Origin: a virus | Strand: one strand, 5' to 3' | Length of the DNA: 64,000 bases | IMG/VR virus record: IMGVR_UViG_3300013131_000024 | Location: 1 to 64,000 of that record | Part shown: piece after piece, positions 7,046 through 57,351 of the stretch | Position numbering within the stretch: the stretch's first letter is position 1 | Layout: every line of letters starts with the position of its first letter | Notes under the pieces: generated by a model | The model's input: only the letters and a program-made list of their open reading frames with translations | Databases searched by the model: none | What the model was told of the DNA's origin: nothing | Made by a program: the position numbers and the translations under genes

Positions 7046-9379
7046 ATGAGCATCACGGTAATCAAGAGAGACGGAAAGAAAGAACCACTTACTATCGAAA
7101 AGTGGCAGGCACAAGTGGCAAAAGTTTGTAAAGGAATCGCAGACGTTAGCCAATCAATGATAGAAATCAAGGCTCAACCACATTTTTACGACGGAATAAC
7201 CACGGAAGAAATCGATGGAATAACTCTACGAGCCATCGTTGATCTCATCGACATCGAACACAATCCTGATGTAGGGCACACGAATTATCAATATGTGGCC
7301 GGTAAGCAACGACTCTCTATGCTACGCAAAGATGTCTATGGCCAATATGAACCTCCACATCTCTATGACATAGTAAAGAAGAATGTATCAGTGGGATTAT
7401 ATAGCCCAGAGTTATTAGAGTGGTATACCGAGGACGATTGGAACAAAATGAATGATATTATCGATCATTCAAAAGATGAAGAATATGGTTATGCTGCTAT
7501 TGAACAGCTAATCGAAAAATATCTTGTAAGAAATCGTAGTACCAAAGAGATCTATGAAACACCACAAGTTAGATACATGGTTGCAGCAGCAACGGTGTTT
7601 CACAAAGAAGAGCCTAATTCGGCTCGAATGAAATATATTAAGGAATATTACAATGCGGCTTCTGACGGTCTATTTACTCTCGCTACTCCTGTTCTTGCTG
7701 GGCTTGGCACTCCCACTAAGCAGTTCAGTAGTTGTGTGCTCATTCGCAGTGATGATGACCTTGACTCCATTTTTGCTTCTGGCGAAATGATGGCCAAGTA
7801 TGCCAGCAAGAGAGCAGGTATTGGTTTGGAGATTGGACGATTACGTCCTTTGGGTAGTCCTATCAGGGGCGGCGAAATCATGCACACTGGCATGATTCCT
7901 TTTTTGAAAAAGTGGTTCGGAGACTTAAGGAGTTGTTCACAAGGTGGTATTCGCAATGCAAGTGCTACTGTGTTTTATCCTATTTGGCATCATCAGTTTG
8001 ACGATCTTATTGTCCTTAAGAATAATCAAGGAACTGAAGAGACTCGCGTCAGACATATGGACTACGGAGTTGTACTATCGGCGTTCTTTTGGCGTAGGTT
8101 TAAAAATAAAGAAAACATCACGTTCTTTGATCCTAACGAAGTACCTGATTTGTACGAAGCCTTTTACAAAAACACAACTGAGTTTGAAGAACTTTATGTT
8201 AGATACGAAAAACGTAAAGACCTTAGAAAAAAAGTAATGTCTGCTGAAGAAGCATTCAAATCAGGCATACTCAAGGAGCGTACAGATACAGGTCGCATCT
8301 ATTTGGTGTTTATTGATAATGTTATGAATCAAGGACCGTTTGATCCTGAATATCATACTATCTATCAAAGTAATCTGTGCTGCGAGATCTTATTGCCAAC
8401 CCGTCCATTTAAGAGATTAGACGACGTGGAAGGACGCATAGCGTTATGCACACTGGGATCCATCAACTGGGGTGCGTTCCGTAACCCAGAAGACATGCGT
8501 AGAGCCTGTCGCATATTACAAAGAAGCCTATGTAATATCCTAGACTATCAGGATTTCTTAAGTATTCAAAGTAAGTTGAGCAACGACGAAATCCAACCTC
8601 TAGGGATAGGCGTTACAAATTTAGCCTATTGGCATGCGAAAAGGGGAATCAAGTATGGCGACAAAGACGCATTGGCAGAAGTTAAACTTTGGATGGAGCA
8701 TCAAGCCTTTTACCTTACAGAAGCAACTGTTGAGCTTGCCAAAGAAAGAGGAAAATGCAAAGAATCAGATAGAACAAGATACGGACAAGGAATCTTCCCT
8801 TGGGAAAGAAGAGCTGACGGAGTTAACGAACTTACCGACTTCTCTCCAGAACTCGATTGGGAGTCGCTCCGTCAAGAAATGAAAACACACGGAGTAAGAA
8901 ATGCTACATTAATGGCTATTGCTCCAGTAGAGTCTAGTAGTGTTGTTATTAATAGCACAAACGGTATTGAAATGCCTATGAGTTTGATATCAACCAAGGA
9001 AAGTAAAGCAGGATCGTTTACACAGGTCGTTCCCGAGTATAACAGATTGAAAAACAAATACCAACTAATGTGGGATCAAAAAGACTGCGACGGATACCTC
9101 AAAACTGCGTCTGTATTAGCAGCATATGTAGATCAGAGTATTAGCACTAACACTTTCTACAATCCAGCACACTTTCCAGATAGAAAAGTACCAACGACGT
9201 TGATTGCTAAAAATCTTATGCAAGCACATGTATGGGGTTTGAAAACATTCTATTATAGCTTGATTAATAAGGCAGGATCTAAAATAGAGGAAAGAACTCC
9301 CGAAGTACATTATAATGGTTTTCATAATGAACGAGAACTTATAGAAGAAATAGAAGATTGCGAAGCTTGTAAGTTATGA
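7046..9379 (+). CDS. nrdA: Ribonucleotide reductase class Ia alpha subunit
   Basis: ATP cone (VIKRDG), QFSSCV, SNLCCEI, GLKTFYY, C-terminal CEAC. Confidence 0.97.
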   Translation: MSITVIKRDGKKEPLTIEKWQAQVAKVCKGIADVSQSMIEIKAQPHFYDGITTEEIDGITLRAIVDLIDIEHNPDVGHTNYQYVAGKQRLSMLRKDVYGQYEPPHLYDIVKKNVSVGLYSPELLEWYTEDDWNKMNDIIDHSKDEEYGYAAIEQLIEKYLVRNRSTKEIYETPQVRYMVAAATVFHKEEPNSARMKYIKEYYNAASDGLFTLATPVLAGLGTPTKQFSSCVLIRSDDDLDSIFASGEMMAKYASKRAGIGLEIGRLRPLGSPIRGGEIMHTGMIPFLKKWFGDLRSCSQGGIRNASATVFYPIWHHQFDDLIVLKNNQGTEETRVRHMDYGVVLSAFFWRRFKNKENITFFDPNEVPDLYEAFYKNTTEFEELYVRYEKRKDLRKKVMSAEEAFKSGILKERTDTGRIYLVFIDNVMNQGPFDPEYHTIYQSNLCCEILLPTRPFKRLDDVEGRIALCTLGSINWGAFRNPEDMRRACRILQRSLCNILDYQDFLSIQSKLSNDEIQPLGIGVTNLAYWHAKRGIKYGDKDALAEVKLWMEHQAFYLTEATVELAKERGKCKESDRTRYGQGIFPWERRADGVNELTDFSPELDWESLRQEMKTHGVRNATLMAIAPVESSSVVINSTNGIEMPMSLISTKESKAGSFTQVVPEYNRLKNKYQLMWDQKDCDGYLKTASVLAAYVDQSISTNTFYNPAHFPDRKVPTTLIAKNLMQAHVWGLKTFYYSLINKAGSKIEERTPEVHYNGFHNERELIEEIEDCEACKL

Positions 9380-13327: not shown

Positions 13328-13734
13328 AAAAATTATTTTGGAATATCTTAGGATTTTCAAGTCTAGGAATGGCCTATATCGGAGTCATTACTCCTGGCAT
13401 TCCTTATTCACCGTTCGTGGTGTTTTCTGCATACTGTTTTTCAAAAGGTTCGGAACGTATGCATCGTTGGATTTACAATCATAAAATATTTGGTCCATTC
13501 TTAACTAATTGGAACGAAAAACGTGTATTTCCTCAAAAACTTCGCTATTTGATGTTGACAATGATGTCATTGAGTCTTATACTAATGTATACCGGTGGAG
13601 TTAAACTTATTGGCATAATTTCAACCGCGGTATTTATGGCGCTAGTGGCTATGTGGGCTTGGAGATATCCCAACACACCCGAAGAACACGATAGACGCAA
13701 AGATGCAGGTGAAAAGATAGGTTGGATTAAATAA
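13324..13734 (+). CDS. YbaN/DUF454-like membrane protein
   Basis: IGVITPGIP..PF...AYCF..GSER.HRW...H..FGP. Confidence 0.8.
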   Translation: MKKLFWNILGFSSLGMAYIGVITPGIPYSPFVVFSAYCFSKGSERMHRWIYNHKIFGPFLTNWNEKRVFPQKLRYLMLTMMSLSLILMYTGGVKLIGIISTAVFMALVAMWAWRYPNTPEEHDRRKDAGEKIGWIK

Positions 13735-13736
13735 AA

Positions 13737-14025
13737 GTTATTGCTGTATGAAGCAAAGAGAAAAGTGTTCTGGACGCGGGTTCGATTCCCGCCCGGTCCA
13801 CCAAAAGCACACTGATTGTCCCACAGAGGCCATTGCTAATATCTGTACAGTGTGTTTCTGACGGGCCGGACCTGGTTTCGACAGGGCAAAGAGTAACAGA
13901 GTGGACAGCAGGGTAGGCGATGACCCTAAATCAAGCAAATCTATAACTGCAAACGCAGCTAATGACGAGGTTTACGCTCTAGCAGCCTAAACTTCCGGGG
14001 CAACTATGCCTTGTAACCAAAAATA
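13737..14025 (+). ncRNA. ssrA: Circularly permuted two-piece tmRNA, tag (A)ANAANDEVYALAA*
   Basis: T-arm and acceptor 3' strand with CCA (13776-13803) precede the 5' strand GGGCCGG (13863); G3:U70 pair; resume context ATAACT-GCA; tag frame 13949-13990. Confidence 0.93.
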
Positions 14026-14029
14026 GTTG

Positions 14030-14056
14030 AGCGGCTTTCGGGCCGCTTTCTTTTTT
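14030..14056 (+). terminator. Intrinsic terminator after tmRNA
   Basis: AGCGGCT-ttcg-GGCCGCT followed by a T-rich run. Confidence 0.85.
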
Positions 14057-14059
14057 GTT

Positions 14060-14108
14060 ATTGATTTTTCCTATGATCATTATTAAAAAATATTTAGGAA
14101 AAACCTAT
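14060..14108 (+). promoter_or_regulatory. OxyR-like operator upstream of ahpC
   Basis: ATTG-N7-CTAT (14060-14074) and TTAG-N7-CTAT (14094-14108). Confidence 0.5.
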
Positions 14109-25292: not shown

Positions 25293-27191
25293 ATGTCTAA
25301 GATCATCGGTATTGACCTCGGCACCACCAATTCATGCGTGGCTATCGTCGAGAACGGAACTTCCAAAGTAATTGAAAATTCGGAAGGTGCTCGTACTACA
25401 CCTAGTATCGTTGCCTATACAGAAAGTGAAGTTCTAGTTGGAGCCAGCGCCAAGCGTCAGGCTGTAACAAATCCCAAAAATACAATTTATGCATCTAAGC
25501 GTTTAATTGGTAGGAAGTTTGCTGAAAAAGAAGTGCAGAAAGATCTAGATCTTATGCCCTATGAAATTTTTGAAAGTTCTAACGGCGATGCTTGGATCAG
25601 AGCGCAGAATAAAGAATTAGCCCCTCCACAAATTTCAGCAGAAGTTCTTCGCAAAATGAAAAAGACCGCAGAAGACTATCTTGGAGTTGAAGTAACTAAA
25701 GCGGTTATCACGGTTCCTGCATATTTCAATGATAGCCAAAGACAGGCTACAAAAGATGCCGGACAAATTGCAGGCCTAGAAGTCTTGCGAATCATCAACG
25801 AACCAACTGCGGCAGCATTAGCTTACGGAGTTGATAAAACAGATAAAAAAGATCGTAAAGTCGCTGTTTACGATCTAGGCGGTGGTACATTTGATATCAG
25901 TATCATCGAGATAGCTAACGTTGATGACGACAAACAGATCGAAGTTCTTTCTACCAACGGTGATACGTTCCTAGGTGGTGAAGATTTTGACCAACGCATC
26001 ATGGATTATCTGGTCGACGAGTTTAAGAAAGAACAAGGTGTTGATCTTACCAAAGACATGCTGGCTCTTCAGCGTTTGAAAGATGCTGCTGAAAAAGCAA
26101 AAATTGAATTGTCTAATAGCACACAGACGGAAGTAAATCTTCCTTACATCACAGCCGACGCCAGCGGTCCAAAACATTTGGTAGTAAAAATTACCAAGGC
26201 AAAATTAGAAAGTTTAGTCGATGATTTGATTCAGCGTAGTTTGGAACCATGTCGTATCGCACTACGTGATGCAGGAGTATCTGCTTCTGATATCGATGAA
26301 GTTATTCTAGTCGGTGGTCAAACTCGTATGCCTAAGGTGCAAGAAGAAGTCGAAAAGCTTTTCGGTAAGGCACCACGTAAAGATGTAAATCCTGATGAAG
26401 CAGTGGCAGTAGGTGCTGCGGTACAAGGTGCTGTTCTAGGTGGTGATCGTACAGATGTTCTATTACTGGACGTTACTCCTTTGTCATTGGGTATTGAAAC
26501 ATTAGGTGGTGTAATGACAAAGATCATCCAGAAAAACACTACTATTCCGACGAAAGGTCAACAGAATTTTTCTACAGCCGAGGATAATCAACCGGCAGTA
26601 ACTATAAAAGTGTTCCAAGGTGAACGTGAATTAGTCCAACATAACAAACTGTTGGGAGAATTTAATCTAGAAGGAATAGCTCCTGCACGTCGGGGTCATC
26701 CTCAGATCGAAGTTACATTTGATATTGATGCTAATGGAATAATGCATATCTCGGCCAAAGATAAAGGCACCGGCAAAGAAAACAAGATCACTATCAAATC
26801 AGATAGCGGATTAAGCAAAGAACAAATCGAACAAATGATTAGAGATGCAGAAGCAAATGCAGAATCAGATAAAAAAGCACGTGAACTTATCGAAACTAAA
26901 AATTCTGCTGAGGCTCAGATACACGAAGTTCGTAAAGATCTCGAAGAATTTCGCACTGATTTAACTGAAGATGAAATCAAACAGATCGAGGATGTGATTA
27001 AATCTGTAGAAGAATCATTAAAAACAGATGACAAAGATCAAATCATCGAGAATCTGAATAAAGTTTATCCGGCAATGAAAACTTTGTTAGACAAAAAACA
27101 AGCAAAAACACAGACACAGCAGACACAAGATGCACCCTCACAGACAGACGACAATGTAGTCGATGCTACCTTTACGGAGAAAAAAGACTGA
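25293..27191 (+). CDS. dnaK: Chaperone DnaK
   Basis: [28 protein letters not shown]. Confidence 0.98.
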
Positions 27192-27240
27192 TAGGTACCT
27201 TGAGGGGCCTTTAACTATTCTTACTTTAAAAGGAGAAAAT

Positions 27241-29159
<1,919 letters not shown>

Positions 29160-47602: not shown

Positions 47603-47655
47603 CATATACTATAATTTCAGAGATGATAAGTAATAGTGAATCCAAAGGAGCTGCT

Positions 47656-48225
47656 GTGTCCAAAAAGTTCGACGATTTTAATGCCGAAGATCGCATCGAC
47701 ATCAAATTACTGGAAAATTCCATACATTTTCTCACAGGTGAAATAGACCAAGAATCTGTGGATAAATGCATCAAATGGATAACCTACGAAAATTTAGATA
47801 CTCGATCAGAAAAAATTCTTACTCTTTACATCAATTCCACAGGCGGAGATTTGTATTCTGCTTTTGCCTTGATTGATGTAATGAAAAACAGTGAACATCC
47901 TGTTAGAACTATCGCTATAGGTGCTGTGATGAGTGCGGCATTTTTGATCGCAGCATCAGGTACCAAAGGACAGAGATTCGCTGCTCGCAATGTCAGTTAT
48001 ATGTGCCACCAATTTACGGAAAATGTTGATGCCAAATATCATGATATTAAGGCCGCGATGAAAGGTAATGAAATGTGTAATGATATGATGGTTGCTGTAT
48101 TGAAGGAAGCTACGGGGTTAGCACCTAGCATTATCAAGAAAAAACTACTGCCCGCCAGTGATGTGTATCTAACTGCTGATGAAGCTGTAGAATTAAAGAT
48201 CGCTGACAATATTTTAGAAAGATAA
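47656..48225 (+). CDS. ClpP-like protease subunit
   Basis: LYINS.GG, MSAA (catalytic Ser), MCHQ, D.YLTA.EA; GTG start with AAGGAG RBS. Confidence 0.88.
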   Translation: MSKKFDDFNAEDRIDIKLLENSIHFLTGEIDQESVDKCIKWITYENLDTRSEKILTLYINSTGGDLYSAFALIDVMKNSEHPVRTIAIGAVMSAAFLIAASGTKGQRFAARNVSYMCHQFTENVDAKYHDIKAAMKGNEMCNDMMVAVLKEATGLAPSIIKKKLLPASDVYLTADEAVELKIADNILER

Positions 48226-48473: not shown

Positions 48474-48502
48474 AAATGCCACATTATATGGGCATTTTTT
48501 CA

Positions 48503-48531
48503 TTGACAAATAAATAAACAGACAATACAAT
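48503..48531 (+). promoter_or_regulatory. Sigma70-type promoter
   Basis: TTGACA-17-TACAAT. Confidence 0.7.
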
Positions 48532-48600
48532 AGATACATGGTTAGTTGATGTTGTTGAAAAAGCAACAGCTCTTAATTTTTCCAAAAAGAAAAATAGGGG

Positions 48601-48629
48601 TTGACAACAGAACTAAATATTTGTATACT
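48601..48629 (+). promoter_or_regulatory. Sigma70-type promoter for the leader/tRNA operon
   Basis: TTGACA-17-TATACT. Confidence 0.8.
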
Positions 48630-48680
48630 TAGATCATGCGTTGGAAATAGCGCAGAAATTTTAAAGGAAAAACAAAGCAA

Positions 48681-48821
48681 ATGAAAACAGTAGGATCGTT
48701 ATCAAGACATTATTGTATAGCCAAACAGGTAGGCATGCCCACCTCTTGGTCTGCGATTAGTCTGTTCAATAATGATCGTACACCAGAGCTATGTCAGGGG
48801 TCCATGGAGACGATGAGTTAA
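48681..48821 (+). CDS. Candidate attenuator leader peptide containing all 20 amino acids
   Basis: MKTVGSLSRHYCIAKQVGMPTSWSAISLFNNDRTPELCQGSMETMS*; AAGGA upstream; overlaps the antiterminator arm. Confidence 0.75.
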   Translation: MKTVGSLSRHYCIAKQVGMPTSWSAISLFNNDRTPELCQGSMETMS

Positions 48822-48883
48822 CGTAAAAATAACTCAAACTTCAAAAGGACCCCAGGACTAAACACCCTGGGGTTTTTGTTTTT
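48797..48883 (+). promoter_or_regulatory. Attenuator with antiterminator/terminator pair
   Basis: GGGGTCC (48797-48803) pairs with GGACCCC (48847-48853), competing with the terminator CCCCAGG/CCTGGGG-TTTTTGTTTTT. Confidence 0.8.
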
Positions 48884-48895
48884 ATAAGGAGAACT

Positions 48896-49072
48896 ATGCA
48901 GTATAATGAAATTGAATTTGATAAGTTGAGTAAGAGAATCGTTGAACAGGCTTACGCTTCTGCTGGTCAGGTACTAGACGAAGAGCAGAAACGCAAACTT
49001 ATTCAAGATAAGTTTGACCGAGCCCGTGCCATGCACGAAGCTCAACAGAAGAGTCCAATCTACGAAGATTAA
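48896..49072 (+). CDS. 58-aa hypothetical protein, first gene after the attenuator
   Basis: AAGGAG RBS; MQYNEIEFDKLSKRIVEQAY...KSPIYED. Confidence 0.7.
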   Translation: MQYNEIEFDKLSKRIVEQAYASAGQVLDEEQKRKLIQDKFDRARAMHEAQQKSPIYED

Positions 49073-49079
49073 GACTCGA

Positions 49080-49301
49080 GTGTGGATGGGAAACGAGGTC
49101 CCAGCGACACACTGTAATAAAAACGTAAACGGGCGGCCTAGTGGATGGAATCCCTCTTGTGGGACTAAAAATACTAGCGTAATTAAGCATTCCCCATTCG
49201 CCCTGCGACGGCGTCTAAAATCATAGAGGAGAATGCTTAATTACACACTCTCCTACTCCATTTGACAAGGAGGACAGGTTGACATAGTCTACGGAGAGTG
49301 T
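49080..49301 (+). ncRNA. Unknown structured RNA(s)
   Basis: 14-bp perfect stem 49179-49192/49231-49244, 9-bp stem 49245-49253/49293-49301 and nested hairpins. Confidence 0.5.
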
Positions 49302-49307
49302 TATAAT
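49279..49307 (+). promoter_or_regulatory. Sigma70-type promoter just before tRNA-Tyr
   Basis: TTGACA-17-TATAAT. Confidence 0.65.
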
Positions 49308-49315
49308 ATGTCTTT

Positions 49316-49402
49316 GGAGGTGTGTGCCGAGCGGCGAAGGCAAGTGACTGTAAATCACCCACATCAGAAACACCGTAGGTTCGATTCCTACCGCCTCCAC
49401 CA
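49316..49402 (+). tRNA. tRNA-Tyr(GTA)
   Basis: Cloverleaf, loop CTGTAAA, CCA. Confidence 0.93.
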
Positions 49403-49408
49403 AAATTT

Positions 49409-49483
49409 GGTCCTATAGTTTATCGGTTAGAATAATGGCCTGTCACGCCGTAGGGACGAGTTCGATTCTCGTTGGGACCGCCA
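49409..49483 (+). tRNA. tRNA-Asp(GTC)
   Basis: Loop CTGTCAC, GCCA end. Confidence 0.95.
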
Positions 49484-49492
49484 AAGTTTTAT

Positions 49493-49570
49493 TCCGGGAT
49501 ACCGTTCTAGGTGAGGCGGGTCTGACTGTTAATCAGAAATAGATTGGTTCGAATCCAATTCCCGGAGCCA
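49493..49570 (+). tRNA. tRNA-Asn(GTT)
   Basis: Loop CTGTTAA, GCCA end. Confidence 0.92.
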
Positions 49571-49623
49571 TTTGAAAGGTAGAGTGATAAATAAATATGT
49601 AAAATATTTTAAGGCTCTACCAT

Positions 49624-50067
49624 ATGAATTATAAGGGAACAAAAGACAAGACTTATGTCTGTCAGCATTGTAAAACAGAGTTTGGTTTTAAAGGTTATAG
49701 TAGCAATCATAAATTTTGCAGTTTAGATTGTTCTTATGCTTATCAATCAGCTCGAAAAGAAAGTTTAAAAGAGCATCGATATCAAAAATGGTTATCCGGA
49801 AAAGATATTGGTGTTAAAAATCCTCGTAAATTAATTAGAGATTTTTTAATTATACGCGATGGATATAGATGTAGTTGTTGTGGAATTGATAGTTGGAATG
49901 GTAAAGAAATAACACTCTGGACAGATCATATCGACGGAGATGCTACTAATAATCACCCAACTAACTTTAGATTAATCTGTCCTAACTGCGATAGCCAATC
50001 AGATACGTTTGGCGGCAAAAATTACGGTAAAGGAAGAAAATCTAGAGGTTTACCACAATATGGTTAA
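49624..50067 (+). CDS. HNH endonuclease
   Basis: C..C, DHIDG...NN...N.RLICPNC. Confidence 0.88.
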   Translation: MNYKGTKDKTYVCQHCKTEFGFKGYSSNHKFCSLDCSYAYQSARKESLKEHRYQKWLSGKDIGVKNPRKLIRDFLIIRDGYRCSCCGIDSWNGKEITLWTDHIDGDATNNHPTNFRLICPNCDSQSDTFGGKNYGKGRKSRGLPQYG

Positions 50068-50078
50068 GTAAAATTAAT

Positions 50079-50153
50079 GCACCGTTCGTCTATCGGTTAG
50101 GACACCCGCCTTTCACGCAGGTAAGAGGAGTTCGATTCTCCTACGGTGTACCA
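50079..50153 (+). tRNA. tRNA-Glu(TTC)
   Basis: Loop CTTTCAC. Confidence 0.93.
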
Positions 50154-50160
50154 GTTTTAT

Positions 50161-50236
50161 GCGGCATTAGTACAGTTGGTAGTACATCTGCTTGCCAAGC
50201 AGAAGGTCACCAGTTCGAGCCTGGTATGCCGCTCCA
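50161..50236 (+). tRNA. tRNA-Gly(GCC)
   Basis: Loop TTGCCAA, TCCA end. Confidence 0.95.
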
Positions 50237-50244
50237 AAGTTTTT

Positions 50245-50343
50245 GCCTCTGTAGCTTAATGGTAAAGAAGGGAGCTTATACCTCCCCAAAGCACAGGCCA
50301 GATAAGCCTGAGTGTGCAGGTTCGAGTCCTGCCAGAGGCACCA
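50245..50343 (+). tRNA. tRNA-Ile(TAT) with long variable arm
   Basis: GGGAG-CTTATAC-CTCCC; about 29-nt variable region; 99 nt. Confidence 0.85.
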
Positions 50344-50349
50344 GTTAAT

Positions 50350-50426
50350 GGCTCCGTAGTTCAGTCCGGCAGAACGTTGGTCTCCAAAACCAAATGTCGG
50401 TGGTTCAAATCCATCCGGGGTCGCCA
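50350..50426 (+). tRNA. tRNA-Trp(CCA)
   Basis: Loop CTCCAAA. Confidence 0.95.
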
Positions 50427-50432
50427 AATGAT

Positions 50433-50509
50433 GTGAGGGTGCCAGAGAGGCCTAATGGCGCAGTCTGCAAAACTGTTGTTCGTCGGTTCGAATCCGACTC
50501 CTCACTCCA
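50433..50509 (+). tRNA. tRNA-Cys(GCA)
   Basis: Loop CTGCAAA, U73. Confidence 0.93.
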
Positions 50510-50513
50510 GAAT

Positions 50514-50594
50514 GCCCCTATGGCCAAATTGGTAAAGGCGGCTCTCTCAAAAGGAGTGTCATAACTATCGGTTCGAATCCGATTAGGGGCACCA
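50514..50594 (+). tRNA. tRNA-Leu(CAA)
   Basis: Loop CTCAAAA. Confidence 0.9.
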
Positions 50595-50602
50595 AAGATT
50601 AT

Positions 50603-50692
50603 GGAAGTGTGGCAGAGCCCGGCTTAATGCACCTGTCTTGAAAACAGACGATCCGAAAGGGTCCGTGAGTTCGAATCTCACCGCTTCCACCA
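50603..50692 (+). tRNA. tRNA-Ser(TGA)
   Basis: Loop CTTGAAA, long variable arm. Confidence 0.95.
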
Positions 50693-50696
50693 AATT

Positions 50697-50770
50697 GCCC
50701 GGATAGTTAAATGGTATAACGGTCGCTTGATAAGCGATTATTCCAAGTTCAATTCTTGGTCTGGGCACCA
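50697..50770 (+). tRNA. tRNA-Ile(GAT)
   Basis: Loop TTGATAA. Confidence 0.93.
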
Positions 50771-50904
50771 ACCTTAAGGAGAACGCAAAATGGGGCGGTC
50801 GCAGTTTTACTCTTGCTGGTAGTATTGATATATTATATTGACAAAAATTTAAAATAGGAGAATGTTATGGAAAGTGATAAATCTGACAAAGGTCCCAAAC
50901 CTTT

Positions 50905-50979
50905 GGGGGTGTGGTGAAATGGTATCACAGCAGACTTTTAATCTGCCAATTTCGGGTTCGAGTCCCGGCGCCCCTACCA
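50905..50979 (+). tRNA. tRNA-Lys(TTT)
   Basis: Loop CTTTTAA. Confidence 0.95.
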
Positions 50980-51045
50980 TATAAAAACACATTCTCTGCT
51001 GGGCATGAATCAGATTCTCTAGCGGGTATGAATGTGTTTCTATAT

Positions 51046-51120
51046 GGTAATGTAGCATAACGGTAGTGCAGCACCTTCATACGGTGCCCAGTGAAAGTTC
51101 GACTCTTTCCATTACCACCA
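51046..51120 (+). tRNA. tRNA-Met(CAT), elongator type
   Basis: Loop TTCATAC, paired 1:72. Confidence 0.88.
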
Positions 51121-51135
51121 GGATTAAATAAGTGT

Positions 51136-51381
51136 ATGAAAGAGCTACTGAAAAATCTGCCGCAGCTATTGGCTGCGATGCCAGAGCTAGTAAAGTACTT
51201 AAAATACATTCCAATCCTCATGATCCTCGCGGGCCTTGGCTACGGAGTAGTCTACTTCGTCCAGAATCGCAAGGATCCATATCAATGCGTTAACAATCAC
51301 GTCTTTGAACAGTTGAGATTAGACAGCGATGTCTATGTGTTCAAAGGCGGAACTTGTATCGATGCCAAAGATTTAAAATAA
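51136..51381 (+). CDS. Small membrane protein
   Basis: One TM helix; TTAAATA upstream. Confidence 0.6.
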   Translation: MKELLKNLPQLLAAMPELVKYLKYIPILMILAGLGYGVVYFVQNRKDPYQCVNNHVFEQLRLDSDVYVFKGGTCIDAKDLK

Positions 51382-51386
51382 ACTGT

Positions 51387-51460
51387 TGGGGTGTAGTGTA
51401 ATGGTAACACCACAGACTTTGACTCTGTAATTCTAGGTTCGAGCCCTAGCACCCCTGCCA
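51387..51460 (+). tRNA. tRNA-Gln(TTG)
   Basis: Loop CTTTGAC. Confidence 0.94.
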
Positions 51461-51461
51461 T

Positions 51462-51535
51462 GCTCTTATAGTTAAATGGCAGAACACATCCTTGGTAAGG
51501 ATGCGATACAAGTTCGATTCTTGTTAGGAGCACCA
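51462..51535 (+). tRNA. tRNA-Thr(GGT)
   Basis: Loop TTGGTAA. Confidence 0.94.
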
Positions 51536-51539
51536 TATT

Positions 51540-51614
51540 CGGCCTGTAGCTCAGTGGAAGAGTTCTGGTCTTCGAAACCAGCAGTCGGGAGTTCGAATCT
51601 CTCCAGGCCGGCCA
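51540..51614 (+). tRNA. tRNA-Arg(TCG)
   Basis: Loop CTTCGAA. Confidence 0.9.
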
Positions 51615-51629
51615 TTTAAGGAGAAAACT

Positions 51630-51836
51630 ATGAAACCAACTTTATTCAAGAATCGTTTCAATAACGAGCGTTTTATCTGCGACAACCCTCGCTTGACCGA
51701 AAACATCGACGGTGTTGAATATGTTGTGGTCCATCGTCCTAATGAGCATCGTGAATTTAAAATGCGTCGTGATGCACTAGAAAAAATTAATGCGCCTGTA
51801 GCTCAGTCGGACCAGAGCACTACGCTACGAACGTAG
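51630..51836 (+). CDS. Hypothetical protein whose 3' end overlaps tRNA-Arg
   Basis: AAGGAG RBS, 68 aa. Confidence 0.6.
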   Translation: MKPTLFKNRFNNERFICDNPRLTENIDGVEYVVVHRPNEHREFKMRRDALEKINAPVAQSDQSTTLRT

Positions 51837-51869
51837 GGGTCGGAGGTTCGAATCCTTCCAGGCGTGCCA
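51792..51869 (+). tRNA. tRNA-Arg(ACG)
   Basis: Loop CTACGAA. Confidence 0.95.
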
Positions 51870-51875
51870 AACAAT

Positions 51876-51951
51876 GGTGTCCTTAATGTAGTGGCCTGCA
51901 TACTAGTCTGTGAAACTGGAAGTACCGGATCGATACCGGTAGGACACCCCA
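51876..51951 (+). tRNA. tRNA-His(GTG)
   Basis: G-1:C73, loop CTGTGAA, atypical T-loop ATCGATA. Confidence 0.88.
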
Positions 51952-51960
51952 AAAGAACAA

Positions 51961-52899
51961 TTAAAGATTTAAACAAAATTCTATTCGAATTTCTTTGTTG
52001 ATATGAGATACAAACAATTCATGTATATTAGAGGGCGGATCAAGTATTGTTCCTAAAGGTAGCTCTAACGGTAAATTACTTGGCAATCTTTCGTAAGATT
52101 TACACCACGATTGAAATCTTTTACTTGCATATAATCGTTTTCTTGTATAATCTATATCTATGGTAATACCGCCATTAGATCCGAGACGTCCTGTACAATC
52201 AAACTCGTTAGGATTATCTTCATCGTAAAATGATCGAAGAACACTTTTACCTAGAATGGATTGATCTAACAGCACCAAGTATTGATAAACTGAATATTTT
52301 TCATAATCATAATTTGCCAAAAAATCTTCTTGATCAAATTCTAACCAATTGTCAAATTGCAAATATCTATCAGTGGGCGTTATGTCAAAACTGGTAAATG
52401 GATATTTGGTTAAAGCATAATTTTTATTATCTGTAATAGTAATTTTTTCTAAAAGATGAACTGAATCATTGATTAAATTTATCAAGGAAAACCATTGATT
52501 ATAATCTATGAATTCTGGAATTGTGAATTTAGAATTATATACATTTTCCACAGATTTATTTAGGTGCAGAGTATCTCTAGCGAATAAAGCATTGTAAACA
52601 AAGAATCTGTGTAATTCATTTAGAATATTTTGATCGTAATTAAATTCTGTGGGAATCGTAGTAGGAAATTTTAAACCAAATCTTTCTAATTCTGATAAGG
52701 CAAATTGTATAAACTTCCAAGATTGTATAATTTGAGATTCGTGTATATAATATTCTTCTAATGATGCAAAATCTTTTTTACATTCATAAGATTGTTTTTT
52801 GCTATTAAAAAAATTAAACCATTTAAAATGCACTTTGTGATCTGTGAATATTCGAATCGCAATGTGTTGATCATTAAGAAAATGTAATTTTAAAAACAT
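51961..52899 (-). CDS. AT-rich hypothetical protein inserted antisense in the tRNA array
   Basis: 312 aa; LNELH..F motif. Confidence 0.65.
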   Translation of the reverse strand: MFLKLHFLNDQHIAIRIFTDHKVHFKWFNFFNSKKQSYECKKDFASLEEYYIHESQIIQSWKFIQFALSELERFGLKFPTTIPTEFNYDQNILNELHRFFVYNALFARDTLHLNKSVENVYNSKFTIPEFIDYNQWFSLINLINDSVHLLEKITITDNKNYALTKYPFTSFDITPTDRYLQFDNWLEFDQEDFLANYDYEKYSVYQYLVLLDQSILGKSVLRSFYDEDNPNEFDCTGRLGSNGGITIDIDYTRKRLYASKRFQSWCKSYERLPSNLPLELPLGTILDPPSNIHELFVSHINKEIRIEFCLNL

Positions 52900-52922
52900 A
52901 AATTATTTAATATCATCGCTTC

Positions 52923-52998
52923 GCCAACTTAGCTGATGTGGTCATAGCGGCGGTCTGAAGAACCGTGGAAAGACGTTCGATTCGTCTAGTTGGCACCA
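52923..52998 (+). tRNA. tRNA-Phe(GAA)
   Basis: Loop CTGAAGA. Confidence 0.92.
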
Positions 52999-53001
52999 CA
53001 T

Positions 53002-53079
53002 GCGGATGTGATGGAATTTGGTATACATATCAGACTTAAAATCTGAGTTCTGAGGGTTCGAATCCCTCCATCCGCACCA
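53002..53079 (+). tRNA. tRNA-Leu(TAA) with short variable arm
   Basis: Loop CTTAAAA; variable region only GTTCT. Confidence 0.9.
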
Positions 53080-53084
53080 AACAT

Positions 53085-53156
53085 GCCTCTGCCGATGGAG
53101 CGGTGCCAGGTCTTCTAAACCAGGTTATGGGAGTTCGAATCTCTCCAGAGGCGCCA
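53085..53156 (+). tRNA. Atypical tRNA-Arg(TCT)
   Basis: Loop CTTCTAA; compressed D-arm; intact T-arm, acceptor stem and CCA. Confidence 0.7.
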
Positions 53157-53164
53157 TATATCAG

Positions 53165-53193
53165 TTGACAAAGCATAGAATAGACTATATAAT
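53165..53193 (+). promoter_or_regulatory. Sigma70-type promoter
   Basis: TTGACA-17-TATAAT. Confidence 0.75.
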
Positions 53194-53226
53194 ATACTTT
53201 GTTCATTAAAAATTTCTAGTTGTTAT

Positions 53227-53254
53227 GCCCCGGTGGTGGAATGGTAGACACGCT
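53227..53254 (+). pseudogene. Orphan 5' third of a tRNA-Leu
   Basis: GCCCCGGTGGTGGAATGGTAGACACGCT, stopping before the anticodon loop. Confidence 0.75.
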
Positions 53255-53282
53255 TTTCTGTGTGTTTAGCATAAATAAATGT

Positions 53283-53726
53283 ATGAAAAACATTTATGAA
53301 TACATTTCACTCCCGAGGGTTGAAAGACAGTCTCATCTCAAATTGGATGAGCCGTGTCTAGAAAGAGGAGCAGGTAGTTATTATTTCAAAGGGCTTTTAG
53401 CTCATTGTTTAGATACTACAGTTCCTACAGGACATAAGATACATTTATGTCATGCTTGTCATAACGGTGCTTGTGGTAATCCCAATCATATGTATTGGGG
53501 TACAGCACAAGAAAATCGTTTAGATCAAGTTGAAAATAACGGCAAAACAATTTGGGAGAGAACTGTCGAAAAACACGGCTTAGAAAAAGCGAAAGCTATG
53601 AACAAACGTGTTGGAAATAAAAATGGTTCTGGCAATAAGGGTAAACCTAAAAGCGAGGAACATAAAGCAAAAATTGCCGCAAACCGTAAAGGTGGGCGAC
53701 AAAAGAAACATGCGGACGTGATGTAA
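53283..53726 (+). CDS. HNH (His-Cys box-like) endonuclease with NUMOD3 tail
   Basis: CHACHN..C.NP.H.YWGT..EN; KSEEHKAKI. Confidence 0.85.
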   Translation: MKNIYEYISLPRVERQSHLKLDEPCLERGAGSYYFKGLLAHCLDTTVPTGHKIHLCHACHNGACGNPNHMYWGTAQENRLDQVENNGKTIWERTVEKHGLEKAKAMNKRVGNKNGSGNKGKPKSEEHKAKIAANRKGGRQKKHADVM

Positions 53727-53795
53727 CTGGTAGCCATGCGAGTCTTAGAAGCTCGTGCCTTGTGCGTGTGAGTTCGAGTCTCACCGTCCGCACCA
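53712..53795 (+). tRNA. tRNA-Leu(TAG)
   Basis: Loop CTTAGAA, variable arm present. Confidence 0.93.
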
Positions 53796-53800
53796 AGTTT

Positions 53801-53831
53801 GCCCTATGGACTTAACCGACCTGGGGCACCA
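53801..53831 (+). pseudogene. 31-nt tRNA acceptor-stem remnant with CCA
   Basis: GCCCTA.../TGGGGC-ACCA. Confidence 0.6.
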
Positions 53832-53996
53832 TTAAAAAATAGCATTAGCGGGTATCGCTTGTGGACGCACAGGCTCACGAAGATTAGGGCCATCTACTTC
53901 TTCTGAAAAAACCGTGGACAATGGCTTATGAGGAGAATCGAACTCCACTCAGAAATCCGTCCCATCCCGTAGGGTGTAATGTTATTCTTTAATGGT
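53828..53996 (+). ncRNA. Unknown ~170-nt structured RNA
   Basis: 20-nt closing stem ACCATTAAAAAATAGCATTA/TAATGTTATTCTTTAATGGT around a GC-richer multi-hairpin core. Confidence 0.6.
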
Positions 53997-54006
53997 AAAG
54001 TTTTTT

Positions 54007-54085
54007 CCGGGTGTAGCTTAGTCTGGCTTAAAGCGCCTGCTTTGGGAGCAGGAGATCGTGAGTTCGAATCCCACTTCCCGGACCA
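54007..54085 (+). tRNA. tRNA-Pro(TGG)
   Basis: Loop TTTGGGA. Confidence 0.94.
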
Positions 54086-54091
54086 GTAAAT

Positions 54092-54166
54092 GCATCGTTA
54101 GTTCAGCGGTAGAACGTCGTCCTTACAAGGCGAATGTCAGTGGTTCGACTCCATTACGATGCACCA
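54092..54166 (+). tRNA. tRNA-Val(TAC)
   Basis: Loop CTTACAA. Confidence 0.95.
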
Positions 54167-54171
54167 ATGCC

Positions 54172-54263
54172 GGAAGGATGGCTGAGAGGCTTAAGGCAGC
54201 AGGTTGCTAACCTGTCGATTCGGGTAACTGGGTCCGAGGGTTCGAATCCCTCTTCTTCCACCA
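54172..54263 (+). tRNA. tRNA-Ser(GCT)
   Basis: Loop TTGCTAA, long variable arm. Confidence 0.95.
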
Positions 54264-54282
54264 ATTTTAAAAAGGAAACTAA

Positions 54283-54462
54283 ATGTTAAGACCAACCGCA
54301 AATTACAAGATGTCCAAACCTACCAAAACTATGTTGGCATCGAGAAGATTTAATTCAGAAACACAAAGACATGACTGGAAAAGATCTATGATTCAGGCTG
54401 AATTAGCTGCTCTTATTCAACCTAAAAGAGAAAAAGGTCGTCGAGAGAACAAAGGTGAATAA
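54283..54462 (+). CDS. 59-aa basic protein (below ORF-track cutoff)
   Basis: AAGGA RBS; MLRPTANYKMSKPTKTMLAS...KRSMIQAEL. Confidence 0.65.
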   Translation: MLRPTANYKMSKPTKTMLASRRFNSETQRHDWKRSMIQAELAALIQPKREKGRRENKGE

Positions 54463-54463
54463 C

Positions 54464-54646
54464 ATGGAAGATTCTCAAAATATTAAAAGAACCGGAACTT
54501 GTGGTTGTGGGCGATCACCAACTGGTGATTGTATTGGTTGGCACAGTCTATCTGAAGATATGTATCAACATCAAAAACTGCTTTGGATAGAAGAAGAAAT
54601 GCGTAAAGATCAGGAAGCAGCACACTTAAAGGAGACTGGCAGATGA
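54464..54646 (+). CDS. CDGSH-like Fe-S/zinc-finger small protein
   Basis: CGCGRSPTGDCIGWH. Confidence 0.65.
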   Translation: MEDSQNIKRTGTCGCGRSPTGDCIGWHSLSEDMYQHQKLLWIEEEMRKDQEAAHLKETGR

Positions 54647-54840
54647 GAGATAAACTGATAGATGCATTGAGAGTTCATTTTGCAGGTAATTTGTTAAAAC
54701 ATAAAATGAATGTAGAAGTTATGTTAAATAATCCAATCGCAATCCATGATCATACTGATTGGATGACTGCTATCGAATCGGAGATTGCACAAATAGCAGA
54801 ATACGAAGATAAATTAGAAGTATTGAATAAACATTTTTAA
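54643..54840 (+). CDS. Conserved small phage protein
   Basis: KHKMNVEV.L.NP..I..H motif. Confidence 0.65.
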   Translation: MRDKLIDALRVHFAGNLLKHKMNVEVMLNNPIAIHDHTDWMTAIESEIAQIAEYEDKLEVLNKHF

Positions 54841-54843
54841 ATT

Positions 54844-54917
54844 GGGGGATTAGTTAAATGGGATAACATCGGCTTTGCAAGCCGAGATTGAGAGTTCGAT
54901 TCTCTCATCCTCCACCA
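54844..54917 (+). tRNA. tRNA-Ala(TGC)
   Basis: Loop TTTGCAA, G3:U70. Confidence 0.95.
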
Positions 54918-54921
54918 ATAT

Positions 54922-54995
54922 GCCCTTTTAGTATAATGGTAATACAGTGGATTTGTAATCCTCTGATGGCAGTTCGATTCTGTCAAGGGGCACCA
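54922..54995 (+). tRNA. tRNA-Thr(TGT)
   Basis: Loop TTTGTAA. Confidence 0.93.
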
Positions 54996-55046
54996 AGATT
55001 ACCAAAATGTCTTGACACAGACACAAAACAGTGTATAATAAGTTTT

Positions 55047-55320
55047 GTTGTGTAGCAATACACAACCGGTGAAGTGAAAGGTAGATGAGGATAGACGCCT
55101 AGTATGGTTTCATACCATACGAACTTATCTGGCAAAGACGACTTGAAAACGTCTCCGTGCTTGAGTGAGCTGATCCAAATATCTTTAACTAGACTGTCAA
55201 TTGCTGATCGGAAATATTCAGGTCTCTGTAGCCTGTCTATTGCACGTTGTCCAGACCGACGATATCGCACAATAGGTCTTGTCAATTGTCCGGTCTATTA
55301 CTTGACCTTTCATCGATCCG
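55047..55320 (+). ncRNA. Structured RNA with 7-nt-periodic YTG motifs
   Basis: Own promoter (TTGACA 55012); long-range GTGAAAGGT/ACCTTTCAT and GATAGAC/GTCTATT pairings. Confidence 0.6.
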
Positions 55321-55349
55321 TCATTATAATTGTAAAAAGAGAGACACAA

Positions 55350-55922
55350 ATGAATATCACACTACGCAAAGCAAATGCAGTACAAAACAGCATCAATGAT
55401 GCACTAAAAAACATTAAGGTTGATCTTAATGTTGAGATTAACGAGTTTCAAAATATCGAAGATGTTATTGGCAAAGCCAATAACACTTTGGTCGAAAATG
55501 ATGCACGTCGTCAAAAGTTGACTATGGCTTTGTACAATATCCGTGCTTTAGTAGGTACTGCAAATGCTGCGAGTGGAATTGACACTGCGCTGGCCAAGGC
55601 AGCGTTCATCGATAAACGTATTGGCCAATTAGAGCAATTGGCGAGCTCTACTGAGATGACTTCTTTAGAAATCATTAAAGGCAAGATTGAAAAGATCAAA
55701 AGTCTCAAGGACGAAGCTCGTAGCCGTATCTATGGCTATGGAGACACGGTAACAACTTCTGTTCTCAGCAAAGAACAGATCGCACAGGCCAAATCAGAAA
55801 TCCTTAATCTGAAAAAGCAAAAGCAAAAGCTCAACGATGAGATCCTTGAGCTGAATATCAAAACCGATATTCCATTATCAGATGATACTGTAGAATTACT
55901 ACAAACAGAAGGATTACTATGA
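55350..55922 (+). CDS. Helical coiled-coil protein, distantly DIP1984-family-like
   Basis: 190 aa from ATG 55350; ends LKKQKQKLNDEILELNIKTDI; family resemblance judged by eye. Confidence 0.6.
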   Translation: MNITLRKANAVQNSINDALKNIKVDLNVEINEFQNIEDVIGKANNTLVENDARRQKLTMALYNIRALVGTANAASGIDTALAKAAFIDKRIGQLEQLASSTEMTSLEIIKGKIEKIKSLKDEARSRIYGYGDTVTTSVLSKEQIAQAKSEILNLKKQKQKLNDEILELNIKTDIPLSDDTVELLQTEGLL

Positions 55923-55928
55923 TATTGC

Positions 55929-56002
55929 CGCGGGTTATAGAAAAGGCATCTTACCAGTCTCATAAGCTGGAGTTGGGGGTTCGAGTCCCTCACCCGCAAC
56001 CA
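55929..56002 (+). tRNA. tRNA-fMet(CAT)
   Basis: C1xA72 mismatch, loop CTCATAA. Confidence 0.88.
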
Positions 56003-56031
56003 GTTATAGATAAAGATACTTATTTGAATAA

Positions 56032-56520
56032 ATGAATATCGCAATAATAATCGATTGTTGGAAAGATACACCAACTACATTGCATCATATAATTCTCTCT
56101 AAAATATTTAGATCGACAAGATTCGTTTATTTAAATATTAAGAAATTTTTAAGTTCAGATTTAATAGATGTAATAATTATTTCTTCCTACGACGACAAAG
56201 ATACTACTCCTACTATTTTAAACATAGACAAGAAAAAATTCTTTTTTTTACACGAAGAACAATTAATAGAATTTTTAAAAAATAATTCAGTTAAAAATAT
56301 CTATATGTGTGGTTGTGCCTGGGATAGTTGTGTAAGAGATCGTCCTCTTGGTTATTTGAATGTCTATAAAATTATTAATTCATTGAACTTAGATATTAGT
56401 GTTTTAGTAAAATATAACTGTGTTAAAAACTTAGATGACACATATTTTGTAAAATCAAAAAATGATGACTGGGTAAAAACCAGTGTAAAAAATATTTTTA
56501 AATACTATCCAAAATGTTAA
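56032..56520 (+). CDS. Isochorismatase/cysteine-hydrolase-like protein
   Basis: IIIDCW...IYMCG.AWD.CV..RPLG. Confidence 0.55.
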   Translation: MNIAIIIDCWKDTPTTLHHIILSKIFRSTRFVYLNIKKFLSSDLIDVIIISSYDDKDTTPTILNIDKKKFFFLHEEQLIEFLKNNSVKNIYMCGCAWDSCVRDRPLGYLNVYKIINSLNLDISVLVKYNCVKNLDDTYFVKSKNDDWVKTSVKNIFKYYPKC

Positions 56521-56527
56521 AGAATAT

Positions 56528-56598
56528 GTGGGAGTAGCTCGGTTGGTAGAGCATTTGCCTTTCAAGCAAGATGTCGTGAGTTCAAGTCTCGCAACCAA
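56528..56598 (+). pseudogene. Degenerate copy of tRNA-Gly(TCC)
   Basis: Near-duplicate of 56695-56770 with anticodon changed to TTC and acceptor 3' strand lost. Confidence 0.7.
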
Positions 56599-56602
56599 TT
56601 AG

Positions 56603-56677
56603 CTCGCTGTAGTTCAATGGACAGAACGATTCTCTCCTAAAGAATAAATCCAGGTTCGATTCCCGGTGGCGAGGCCA
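56603..56677 (+). tRNA. tRNA-Arg(CCT)
   Basis: Loop CTCCTAA. Confidence 0.92.
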
Positions 56678-56694
56678 GTGTTAAATAGTTTTAT

Positions 56695-56770
56695 GCGGGT
56701 GTAGCTCAGTTGGTAGAGCACTTGCCTTCCAAGCAAGATGTCGAGAGTTCGAGACTCTTCGCCCGCTCCA
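56695..56770 (+). tRNA. tRNA-Gly(TCC)
   Basis: Loop CTTCCAA, TCCA end. Confidence 0.95.
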
Positions 56771-56775
56771 AATAT

Positions 56776-57351
56776 ATGCAAGTAATAGACTATAACGATA
56801 CATTCCGTAAGTTTGATTTCAGTTCTGTTATAACAGCGGCTGATAACGATGTTGCTATAGGAATCGTGAAAAATATCATCGCAGATGGCAATTATTTTAC
56901 CAACAGTCCAAAATATCAAACTAAAGAAAACATCTTCAAAAGAAAAGAAACTGTATGGTTGAAATACCGTATGAGTTTTTTGTTTTCAGTTTTTATGTAC
57001 CTAGGTCGTGAAGTAAAAGTTTCTAACATGATGGCCTGGTCATTCATGACTAATTTAGAGGGTGCCGAAGACCGTGAAAAATTATGGCACCATCATTGGC
57101 ATCCTTCCAGACCAGATGCTAAGATGATGAGTGGAGTTTTTTATCTGCATATCCCCGACGATGTCAAAGACAGAGATTATGCAGGCACAGAAATGGCACC
57201 AAACGGCATAGATGCAGATGGAAAGTTTTTTGTCCGCCCTGCAGACTATCAATGGCTTATATATCCCAGCGATCAATGGCATAGACCCGGCATCGTCCAA
57301 AGTAACCAATACAGATTCGTGTTGGCAGCAGACGTAGAATATTACGATTGA
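56776..57351 (+). CDS. 2OG-Fe(II) oxygenase-like protein
   Basis: WHHH, SGVFYL, GTE, IYPS..WH, R.VLA. Confidence 0.7.
   Translation: MQVIDYNDTFRKFDFSSVITAADNDVAIGIVKNIIADGNYFTNSPKYQTKENIFKRKETVWLKYRMSFLFSVFMYLGREVKVSNMMAWSFMTNLEGAEDREKLWHHHWHPSRPDAKMMSGVFYLHIPDDVKDRDYAGTEMAPNGIDADGKFFVRPADYQWLIYPSDQWHRPGIVQSNQYRFVLAADVEYYD

Follow-up and report, generated by a model that had tools for sequence, protein, structure and literature searches.

The stretch of DNA analyzed here, referred to below as the window, comprises the 64,000 nucleotides at positions 1 to 64,000 of the IMG/VR virus record IMGVR_UViG_3300013131_000024, and the element of interest lies on its given strand at 48601-48883. This element consists of a promoter, a 46-codon leader open reading frame (ORF) in which all 20 amino acids occur, and two overlapping RNA hairpins, an antiterminator and an intrinsic terminator, beyond which lie a small ORF, a structured RNA, and a large array of tRNA genes. 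An original prediction, made from the letters of the window, had proposed that the element is an attenuator in which stalling of a ribosome at any codon allows transcription to proceed into the tRNA genes; this proposal is followed up here both in the window and in a family of homologous elements. The features of the locus are as follows.

48503-48531, + strand: promoter P1, TTGACA-17-TACAAT, 11/12 matches, upstream of P2
48551-48580, + strand: small terminator-like hairpin with a T-run, between P1 and P2
48601-48629, + strand: leader promoter P2, TTGACA-17-TATACT, 11/12 matches
48637-48654, + strand: hairpin in the 5' untranslated region, restricted to the subgroup of the window (fold and alignment)
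48664-48668, + strand: AAGGA, weak Shine-Dalgarno-like sequence, 12 nt 5' of the ATG
48681-48821, + strand: leader ORF, beginning with ATG, 46 codons plus TAA, all 20 amino acids by codon 36
48690-48781, + strand: structured 5' domain within the ORF, in which codons 4-8 pair with the Asn-Asp-Arg codons
48797-48853, + strand: antiterminator hairpin (-22.8 kcal/mol), arms 48797-48803 and 48847-48853, with the stop codon (48819-48821) in its 5' half
48806-48809, + strand: GGAG, Shine-Dalgarno-like, 9 nt 5' of the stop codon and also paired within the hairpin
48850-48883, + strand: intrinsic terminator, stem 48850-48856 / 48866-48872, T-run from 48873
48896-49072, + strand: 58-amino-acid ORF, with AAGGAG at 48886-48891
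49073-49278, + strand: conserved structured RNA downstream of the terminator (z -3.84, no Rfam match)
49279-49307, + strand: promoter P3, 12/12 matches, 8 nt before tRNA-Tyr
49316-56770, + strand: tRNA array (ARAGORN and Rfam), whose first gene is tRNA-Tyr at 49316

The elementary claims of the original prediction are borne out by the sequence, in that a promoter at 48601-48629 precedes a 46-codon ORF encoding the peptide that had been given, and direct reading of the codons confirms that the amino acid set is complete by codon 36 and that the first 37 codons include 31 different ones (34 distinct codons overall). Its caveat that internal promoters might bypass the leader for parts of the array was also sound, since those at 49279, 53165, and 55012 all show 12/12 matches, as does a further one at 57348.

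Two overlapping helices in a family of homologous leaders

Relatives of the element were sought by four routes, namely through two flanking genes, through the terminator motif, through an Asp-Arg-Thr-Pro-Glu codon motif that is independent of the terminator, and by a nucleotide profile search, the last of which finds exactly one element per locus in 192 viral contigs. The resulting family, present in at least 190 viral contigs from lake, freshwater, and wastewater metagenomes, comprises 146 distinct elements with 140 distinct peptides of 35-53 amino acids. An ATG-initiated ORF of 35-53 codons that ends inside the hairpin is found in all 146 elements, and the peptide core IAKQ.G.MP..W...NDRTPE is conserved across homologues. 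A DNA search of 50,697 cultured-phage records gives no match for 48480-49320, the leader peptide has no match in Pfam or PHROGs, and comparison of 48590-49320 with Rfam, including its leader families and the T-box, gives nothing above E = 0.5 and nothing at the gathering score. The protein database contains only four unnamed relatives of the peptide, and the ORF is almost never called by gene callers. A search for cultured relatives by way of DnaK was uninformative, as a chaperone-like gene of this kind is found everywhere.

In 110 of 111 relatives, the distance from the leader ATG to a promoter with at least 10/12 matches is no more than 130 nt. An untranslated leader is absent from many relatives, in which the ATG is situated 9-10 nt past the -10 box, and alignment shows that P1 of the window resembles the promoter that drives this near-leaderless form. 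Therefore, the 5' untranslated region of the window looks inserted.

The antiterminator of the window is formed by GGGGTCC/GGACCCC around the inner helices TGGAG/CTTCA and TGAGTTA/TAACTCA, whereas the terminator has the arms CCCCAGG/CCTGGGG, and the last ten leader codons lie within the 5' half of the former. The CCCC at 48850-48853 is common to both helices, which makes them mutually exclusive as had been proposed, and an overlap of this kind, in which the 3' arm of the antiterminator shares 4-9 nt with the 5' arm of the terminator, recurs in 146/146 elements. When folded freely, the transcript of the window adopts the long hairpin and not the terminator, and its structure is unusually stable (z = -4.75).

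Because RNAalifold applied to a plain MAFFT alignment recovered the terminator only, both helices were defined sequence by sequence, and base pairs were counted on an alignment of the 3' domain containing 135 sequences. The original prediction had asked for covariation in the two helices, and this is found: the shared nucleotide pairs in the antiterminator as GC (78), AU (42), or GU (5) and in the terminator as CG (86), UG (28), or UA (19), thus covarying with both of its partners, and both helices beat shuffled and slid controls. A GC-rich terminator stem of 7-9 bp followed by a T-run is present in every one of the 146 elements, with compensatory changes, and divergent members swap whole arms while keeping the overlap, as in the combination of GGGTTCC/GGAACCC with CCCTGGA/TCCAGGG. 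The hairpin is also the more stable structure in 146/146 elements (mean -24.2 kcal/mol vs -14.8 kcal/mol for the terminator), so that the default outcome without a ribosome would be read-through.

The end of the ORF occupies a nearly fixed place in this arrangement. In most elements, 21-25 nt separate the stop codon from the beginning of the 5' arm. Inside the hairpin, two or three reading frames are closed by stop codons in 135 of the 146, and in 124 a GGAG or GAGG occurs 8-11 nt upstream of the leader's stop codon, where it might possibly hold the terminating ribosome in place. Among leaders that contain all 20 amino acids, 86% have sampled every one of them by the point at which the 5' arm begins, and the last to appear is usually the Glu in Thr-Pro-Glu, located 9-11 nt ahead of that arm. 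A footprint model, in which the transcript is folded at equilibrium while nucleotides under the ribosome are kept unpaired, predicts for the window that the antiterminator forms as long as the A-site is at codons 1-36 and that the terminator forms from codon 37-38 onward. This modeled flip between codons 36 and 38 coincides with completion of the amino acid set and agrees with the earlier suggestion of a sampling zone followed directly by a switch; the model lends its support to the window and less of it to the family as a whole. With regard to a pause or anti-antiterminator hairpin of the 1:2 type, the ORF body is significantly structured, but no pairing in competition with the antiterminator was found. 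The domain at 48690-48781 may be an RNA polymerase pause or synchronizing hairpin.

Selection for a complete set of amino acids

Coverage of all 20 amino acids is rare in sequences of this length, as the original prediction required: it occurs in 1.7% of 46-residue windows taken from the long ORFs of this phage and in 2.3% of composition-matched random peptides of 46 residues, and 3 of the 57 short ORFs of similar length in the window show it. Taken by itself, completeness of this lone leader is insignificant; its conservation across homologues is significant. At the level of codons, the earlier count of 27 out of 30 downstream tRNAs having a codon in the leader stands with a small change, in that 26-27 tRNAs are served out of the 29 identified by ARAGORN, the exceptions being Leu-CAA and Arg-CCT, joined by Arg-TCG if wobble rules are applied strictly. 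In windows of 46 codons drawn at random from genes, 20.7 +/- 2.6 tRNAs are covered and only 1.1% of the windows reach 26, which places the leader in the top ~1% for tRNA coverage; it ranks equally high for its number of distinct codons. In addition, the leader favors codons that are rarely used elsewhere in the phage (GAG, GCG, GGG, and CCC), and a codon-adaptation-like score puts it in the lowest 3%.

Across the family, 123 of the 140 distinct peptides contain all 20 amino acids, 15 contain 19, and 2 contain 18; the set is complete even in two peptides of 35 residues. When residues are shuffled within alignment columns, 15.8 +/- 3.4 peptides remain complete (~18%), whereas 77 of 87 are so in the actual alignment, and the excess persists among representatives that are less than 40% identical, of which 15 of 19 are complete vs 2.5 +/- 1.4 after shuffling, with none of 2000 shuffles reaching 15. 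The rare residues Cys, His, Tyr, and Phe shift position and are almost never lost. Cys, at an average of 1.23 copies, is spread over 17 alignment columns and His over 11, and neither is missing from any of the 87 aligned peptides, a few peptides without Cys being found in the full set of 140. Rare amino acids are mostly present exactly once per leader, there are too few zeros for their mean copy number, and an internal Met occurs in 138 of the 140 peptides. In 63 independent sister pairs, a single-copy residue changed column 145 times; it reappeared elsewhere in 139 of these and was lost in 6, whereas only ~62 reappearances would be expected from the family's own composition. Some of these moves are perhaps alignment shifts, but the scarcity of losses is independent of the alignment. 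Furthermore, leaders of the family sample the two codon boxes of each of Ser, Leu, and Arg, as well as the two classes of Ile codons, more often than expected if synonymous codons were chosen at random, and they contain no runs of regulatory codons.

Completeness is thus, as judged from these comparisons, under selection at the amino acid level. Because such a property cannot arise from RNA structure alone, the leader frame is very probably translated.

One could ask whether the ORF is simply a small protein gene of the ordinary kind that is provided with a terminator, its completeness being a by-product of common descent. The presence of the ORF with a recognizable core in every homologue, flanked by a promoter and a terminator, would fit such a gene. 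However, descent does not account for completeness far above the column-shuffled expectation even below 40% identity, for rare residues that relocate instead of vanishing, or for a stop codon that always lies inside a hairpin competing with a terminator. The pattern of divergence also differs from that of an ordinary gene, pN/pS being 0.76 in the leader, which indicates weak amino acid constraint, vs 0.33 in the adjacent gene for the 58-amino-acid protein. Completeness is kept while the peptide drifts, as had been anticipated, with the core nonetheless conserved. AlphaFold supplied with 54 homologues gives a pLDDT of 61 and a pTM of 0.12, with no secondary structure and no confident fold, and the lack of a family match together with the rare codons points in the same direction. 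On this evidence an ordinary gene is highly improbable.

A second possibility is that the terminated leader transcript of ~250 nt, or the peptide, is itself a product acting in trans, with or without attenuation in cis. The transcript has a strong dedicated promoter and is highly structured: besides the z of -4.75 noted above, the ORF body is more structured than codon-permuted controls in 50 of the 50 cases of a subsample (mean z -2.6). Its synonymous sites are unusually conserved, synonymous divergence being 0.20 in the leader vs 0.40 in the adjacent small gene for the same phage pairs, and the Sinorhizobium rnTrpL RNA and peTrpL peptide (PMC6614838; PMC7968998) provide a trans-acting precedent. 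However, a trans-acting RNA needs neither an ORF, nor a fixed stop position, nor a complete amino acid set, a trans-acting peptide is at odds with the lack of a predicted fold, and neither product explains the overlap of hairpin and terminator with its two-way covariation. This reading is unlikely, but such an RNA or peptide may well coexist with attenuation.

tRNA genes and other cargo downstream of the switch

A tRNA array on the same strand follows the element in 66/66 cases, namely all those in which 1.5 kb or more of downstream sequence is available, and the median distance from the terminator to the first tRNA is 460 nt. Homologous leaders are thus constantly found upstream of tRNA arrays, as the original prediction required of its proposal. 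In the window, ARAGORN identifies 29 tRNAs and Rfam adds 2 more, and the array covers all 20 amino acids, with homing endonuclease and other ORFs interspersed among its genes. The two tRNA-like genes seen by Rfam and missed by ARAGORN lie at 50245-50340 (96 nt) and 56528-56600. One of the interspersed ORFs, at 49624-50067, encodes a Cys-rich protein of 147 amino acids that, by eye, looks like a homing endonuclease of the HNH kind.

The leader had been described as lying ahead of the tRNA array; it is indeed upstream, but not immediately so, as the 58-amino-acid ORF, a structured RNA of ~200 nt, and a perfect promoter come between. The small ORF begins 12 nt past the T-run with a good ribosome-binding site, and because this spacing is too short for a promoter, it would be transcribed by read-through only. 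A homologue is found in 84 of 111 relatives, and the protein is helical-looking, with no family match and nothing in the ESM Atlas. The RNA at 49073-49278 contains a GTGTG/CACAC helix around a GGGAAACGAGGTCCC hairpin, a ACGGGCGGCC motif, and a perfect 14-bp stem; in relatives that do not have the small ORF, the structured RNA stands directly 3' of the terminator.

These intervening features raise the possibility that the same switch operates with the 58-amino-acid protein and the 49073-49278 RNA as its chief output, the tRNA array being served by promoters of its own. The perfect promoter 8 nt before tRNA-Tyr and those at 53165 and 55012 would supply the array, while the small ORF is promoterless and conserved and the spacer RNA is conserved and structured. 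However, the small ORF is missing in about a quarter of relatives, and 65 of 111 relatives have no strong promoter between the terminator and the first tRNA. This view is also difficult to reconcile with leaders whose amino acid content tracks the downstream tRNA set, and it is rather unlikely overall. Such leaders are found in two relatives, L023 and L118, which provide a natural experiment. Both leaders are without Glu and Tyr and contain Asp only inside the hairpin, and in both phages the leader is preceded by the genes for tRNA-Asp, tRNA-Glu, and tRNA-Tyr. The tRNAs downstream of the L023 leader number 20, and the amino acids that they carry are exactly the 17 others found in that leader. 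When counted as one event, a three-of-twenty match of this kind has a chance of ~1 in 1140, and this appears, from sequence comparison, to be the best single piece of evidence for the link between leader and tRNAs. In a further relative, L148, the leader is without Leu and a tRNA-Leu gene lies upstream. No match at the isoacceptor level between leader codons and tRNAs was seen when TTR codons were compared with the position of tRNA-Leu(UAA), so that matching would be by amino acid at best, and imperfect.

The same lineage bears on whether the leader might gauge only general translation capacity or transcription-translation coupling, such as the supply of ribosomes or host shut-off, and not each amino acid. 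The two-state logic of the switch reports only whether a ribosome keeps up with the polymerase, and the ribosome-free default of read-through would suit such a gauge. Yet a gauge of pace needs no particular composition, whereas completeness is under selection and composition tracks the downstream tRNA set in one lineage, which makes this reading distinctly unlikely.

Some other tRNA-associated features were observed in relatives. A 34-codon ORF at L023:4543-4648, rich in Tyr, Ser, Met, and Asp and followed by a T-run, lies upstream of a block of tRNA-Ser/Glu/Tyr/Asp/Met genes that is itself ahead of the main leader, and this ORF may be a second, block-specific leader. L137 and L145, divergent members with switch arms of wholly different sequence, have an ARAGORN tRNA with the anticodon CUA (amber-reading) upstream of the leader.

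With regard to the host, the phage DNA occurs in lake-water metagenomes, and a two-piece (permuted) tmRNA of betaproteobacterial type, with the tag ANAANDEVYALAA, is present at 13693-14081; a tmRNA of this type is also found in L118. A complete 48-amino-acid leader is found at L211:5722-5925, on a contig of 6.2 kb that was assigned by binning to a metagenome-assembled genome of Polynucleobacter. These are hints only of a betaproteobacterial host, perhaps Polynucleobacter. The window also encodes DnaK-like, GroEL-like, and ClpP-like proteins and a ribonucleotide reductase (25293-29159, 47623-48225, 7046-9379), and with these, the tmRNA, and its full complement of tRNAs, the phage has a large repertoire for translation and protein quality control.

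Proposed mechanism and relation to known systems

Taken together, we consider it probable, at roughly 0.7, that the element acts as a transcription attenuator governed by a ribosome, with a leader in which each amino acid is sampled one or a few times; slow decoding of any amino acid would thereby probably increase the output of tRNAs. A trans-acting product, an ordinary gene, or a gauge of pace each leaves either the selected completeness or the two-way covariation unexplained.

In the scheme that we infer, which covers translation, the kinetics of coupling, termination, and the physiological trigger, host RNA polymerase would initiate at 48601-48629 and at P1, and a ribosome would translate the 46-codon ORF close behind it. 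If decoding is fast, the ribosome would be on 48797-48821 as the 3' arm emerges, leaving CCCC at 48850-48853 free to form the terminator, and transcription would stop at the T-run. If the ribosome is delayed within approximately the first 36 codons, or does not load at all, the more stable hairpin would sequester CCCC, no terminator would form, and the polymerase would continue through the 58-amino-acid ORF and the structured RNA into the tRNA genes. The result would be negative feedback, in which tRNA output goes up when any aminoacyl-tRNA is limiting and down when all are ample.

Several observations weigh against this reading. P3 at 49279 feeds the tRNAs of the window independently of the attenuator, and promoters similar to it occur beyond the terminator and ahead of the first tRNA in 46 of 111 relatives, the window included; because of this bypass, the switch of the window would strictly gate the 58-amino-acid ORF and the structured RNA only and would add to tRNA transcription. 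The ribosome-binding site of the leader is weak or absent. One or two amino acids are absent from 17 of the 140 leaders, and the L078 and L103 leaders are without Leu despite Leu tRNAs downstream. TTR codons are kept in 14 of 18 leaders that have tRNA-Leu(UAA) upstream vs 88 of 100 others. In the equilibrium model, whose outcome depends on the footprint, the completing codon falls before or at the switch in only ~60% of relatives. The peptide core is well conserved, which a pure codon sampler would not need; RNA structure within the ORF may be the cause of this conservation. Finally, extra tRNA cannot cure amino acid starvation, and therefore the useful signal must be a shortage of tRNA. A host anticodon nuclease as the trigger is speculation.

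A broader and more tentative interpretation, which we regard as possible but less than even, is that large freshwater phages carry a general sensor of aminoacyl-tRNA supply, through which a shortage of any single tRNA switches on a complete replacement tRNA set along with a small protein and an RNA, so that the arrays would be a demand-driven organ of counter-defense. Decay of the host pool, codon mismatch, or host anticodon nucleases could each give rise to such a shortage. The attenuator would bear on why phages carry large tRNA arrays and on how the arrays are regulated. If the proposal is true, this would be the first attenuator controlling tRNA genes and the first leader to read all 20 amino acids and not one or a few, in a compact design in which 35-53 codons gauge the whole decoding apparatus. 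Such an element might also be of use as a compact reporter of translational stress. A search of the published literature found no all-amino-acid leader and no attenuation of tRNA genes; the closest known systems share part of the design.

The element exhibits considerable similarities to the trpL, hisL, leuL, thrL, pheL, and ilv leaders, which likewise have a short translated ORF and a choice between terminator and antiterminator that is decided by the position of the ribosome, stalling leading to read-through (here as a prediction). There are also significant differences. The leaders of amino acid operons contain runs of one to three regulatory amino acids, whereas each of the 20 occurs about once here, and they control biosynthetic genes, whereas the cargo here consists of the tRNA array along with the small ORF and the structured RNA. 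Because both the regulatory-codon runs and the biosynthetic cargo are absent, the element is not a plain member of the trp/his/leu class. In addition, amino acid operon leaders follow a 1:2 / 2:3 / 3:4 logic in which absence of translation results in termination; only two competing helices are evident here, and absence of translation is expected to result in read-through.

In pyrBI and pyrE, a ribosome close to the polymerase blocks the terminator hairpin and thereby causes read-through. As in these systems, the outcome here would be set by the closeness of ribosome and polymerase at a terminator that follows a short ORF, but with the opposite sign, since a close ribosome should block the antiterminator and lead to termination. 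T-box riboswitches are similar in that translation-related genes are tuned to the state of tRNA by a choice between terminator and antiterminator. However, T-boxes bind one uncharged tRNA directly and without translation, whereas a conserved ORF is present here.

The nearest published case of a regulated accessory tRNA array is the trn operon of Anabaena sp. PCC 7120, a long and near-complete array that is induced by translational stress (PMC8421152; PMC10272220). Its control has been attributed to tandem direct repeats over the -10 box and start site and to the repressor TrcR (PMC8421152), and neither PMC8421152 nor PMC10272220 mentions a leader, attenuator, or terminator for this operon. The two arrangements are alike in their cargo, an accessory array that in Anabaena is turned on when translation is impaired and that in the phages studied here would be turned on when the leader is decoded slowly.

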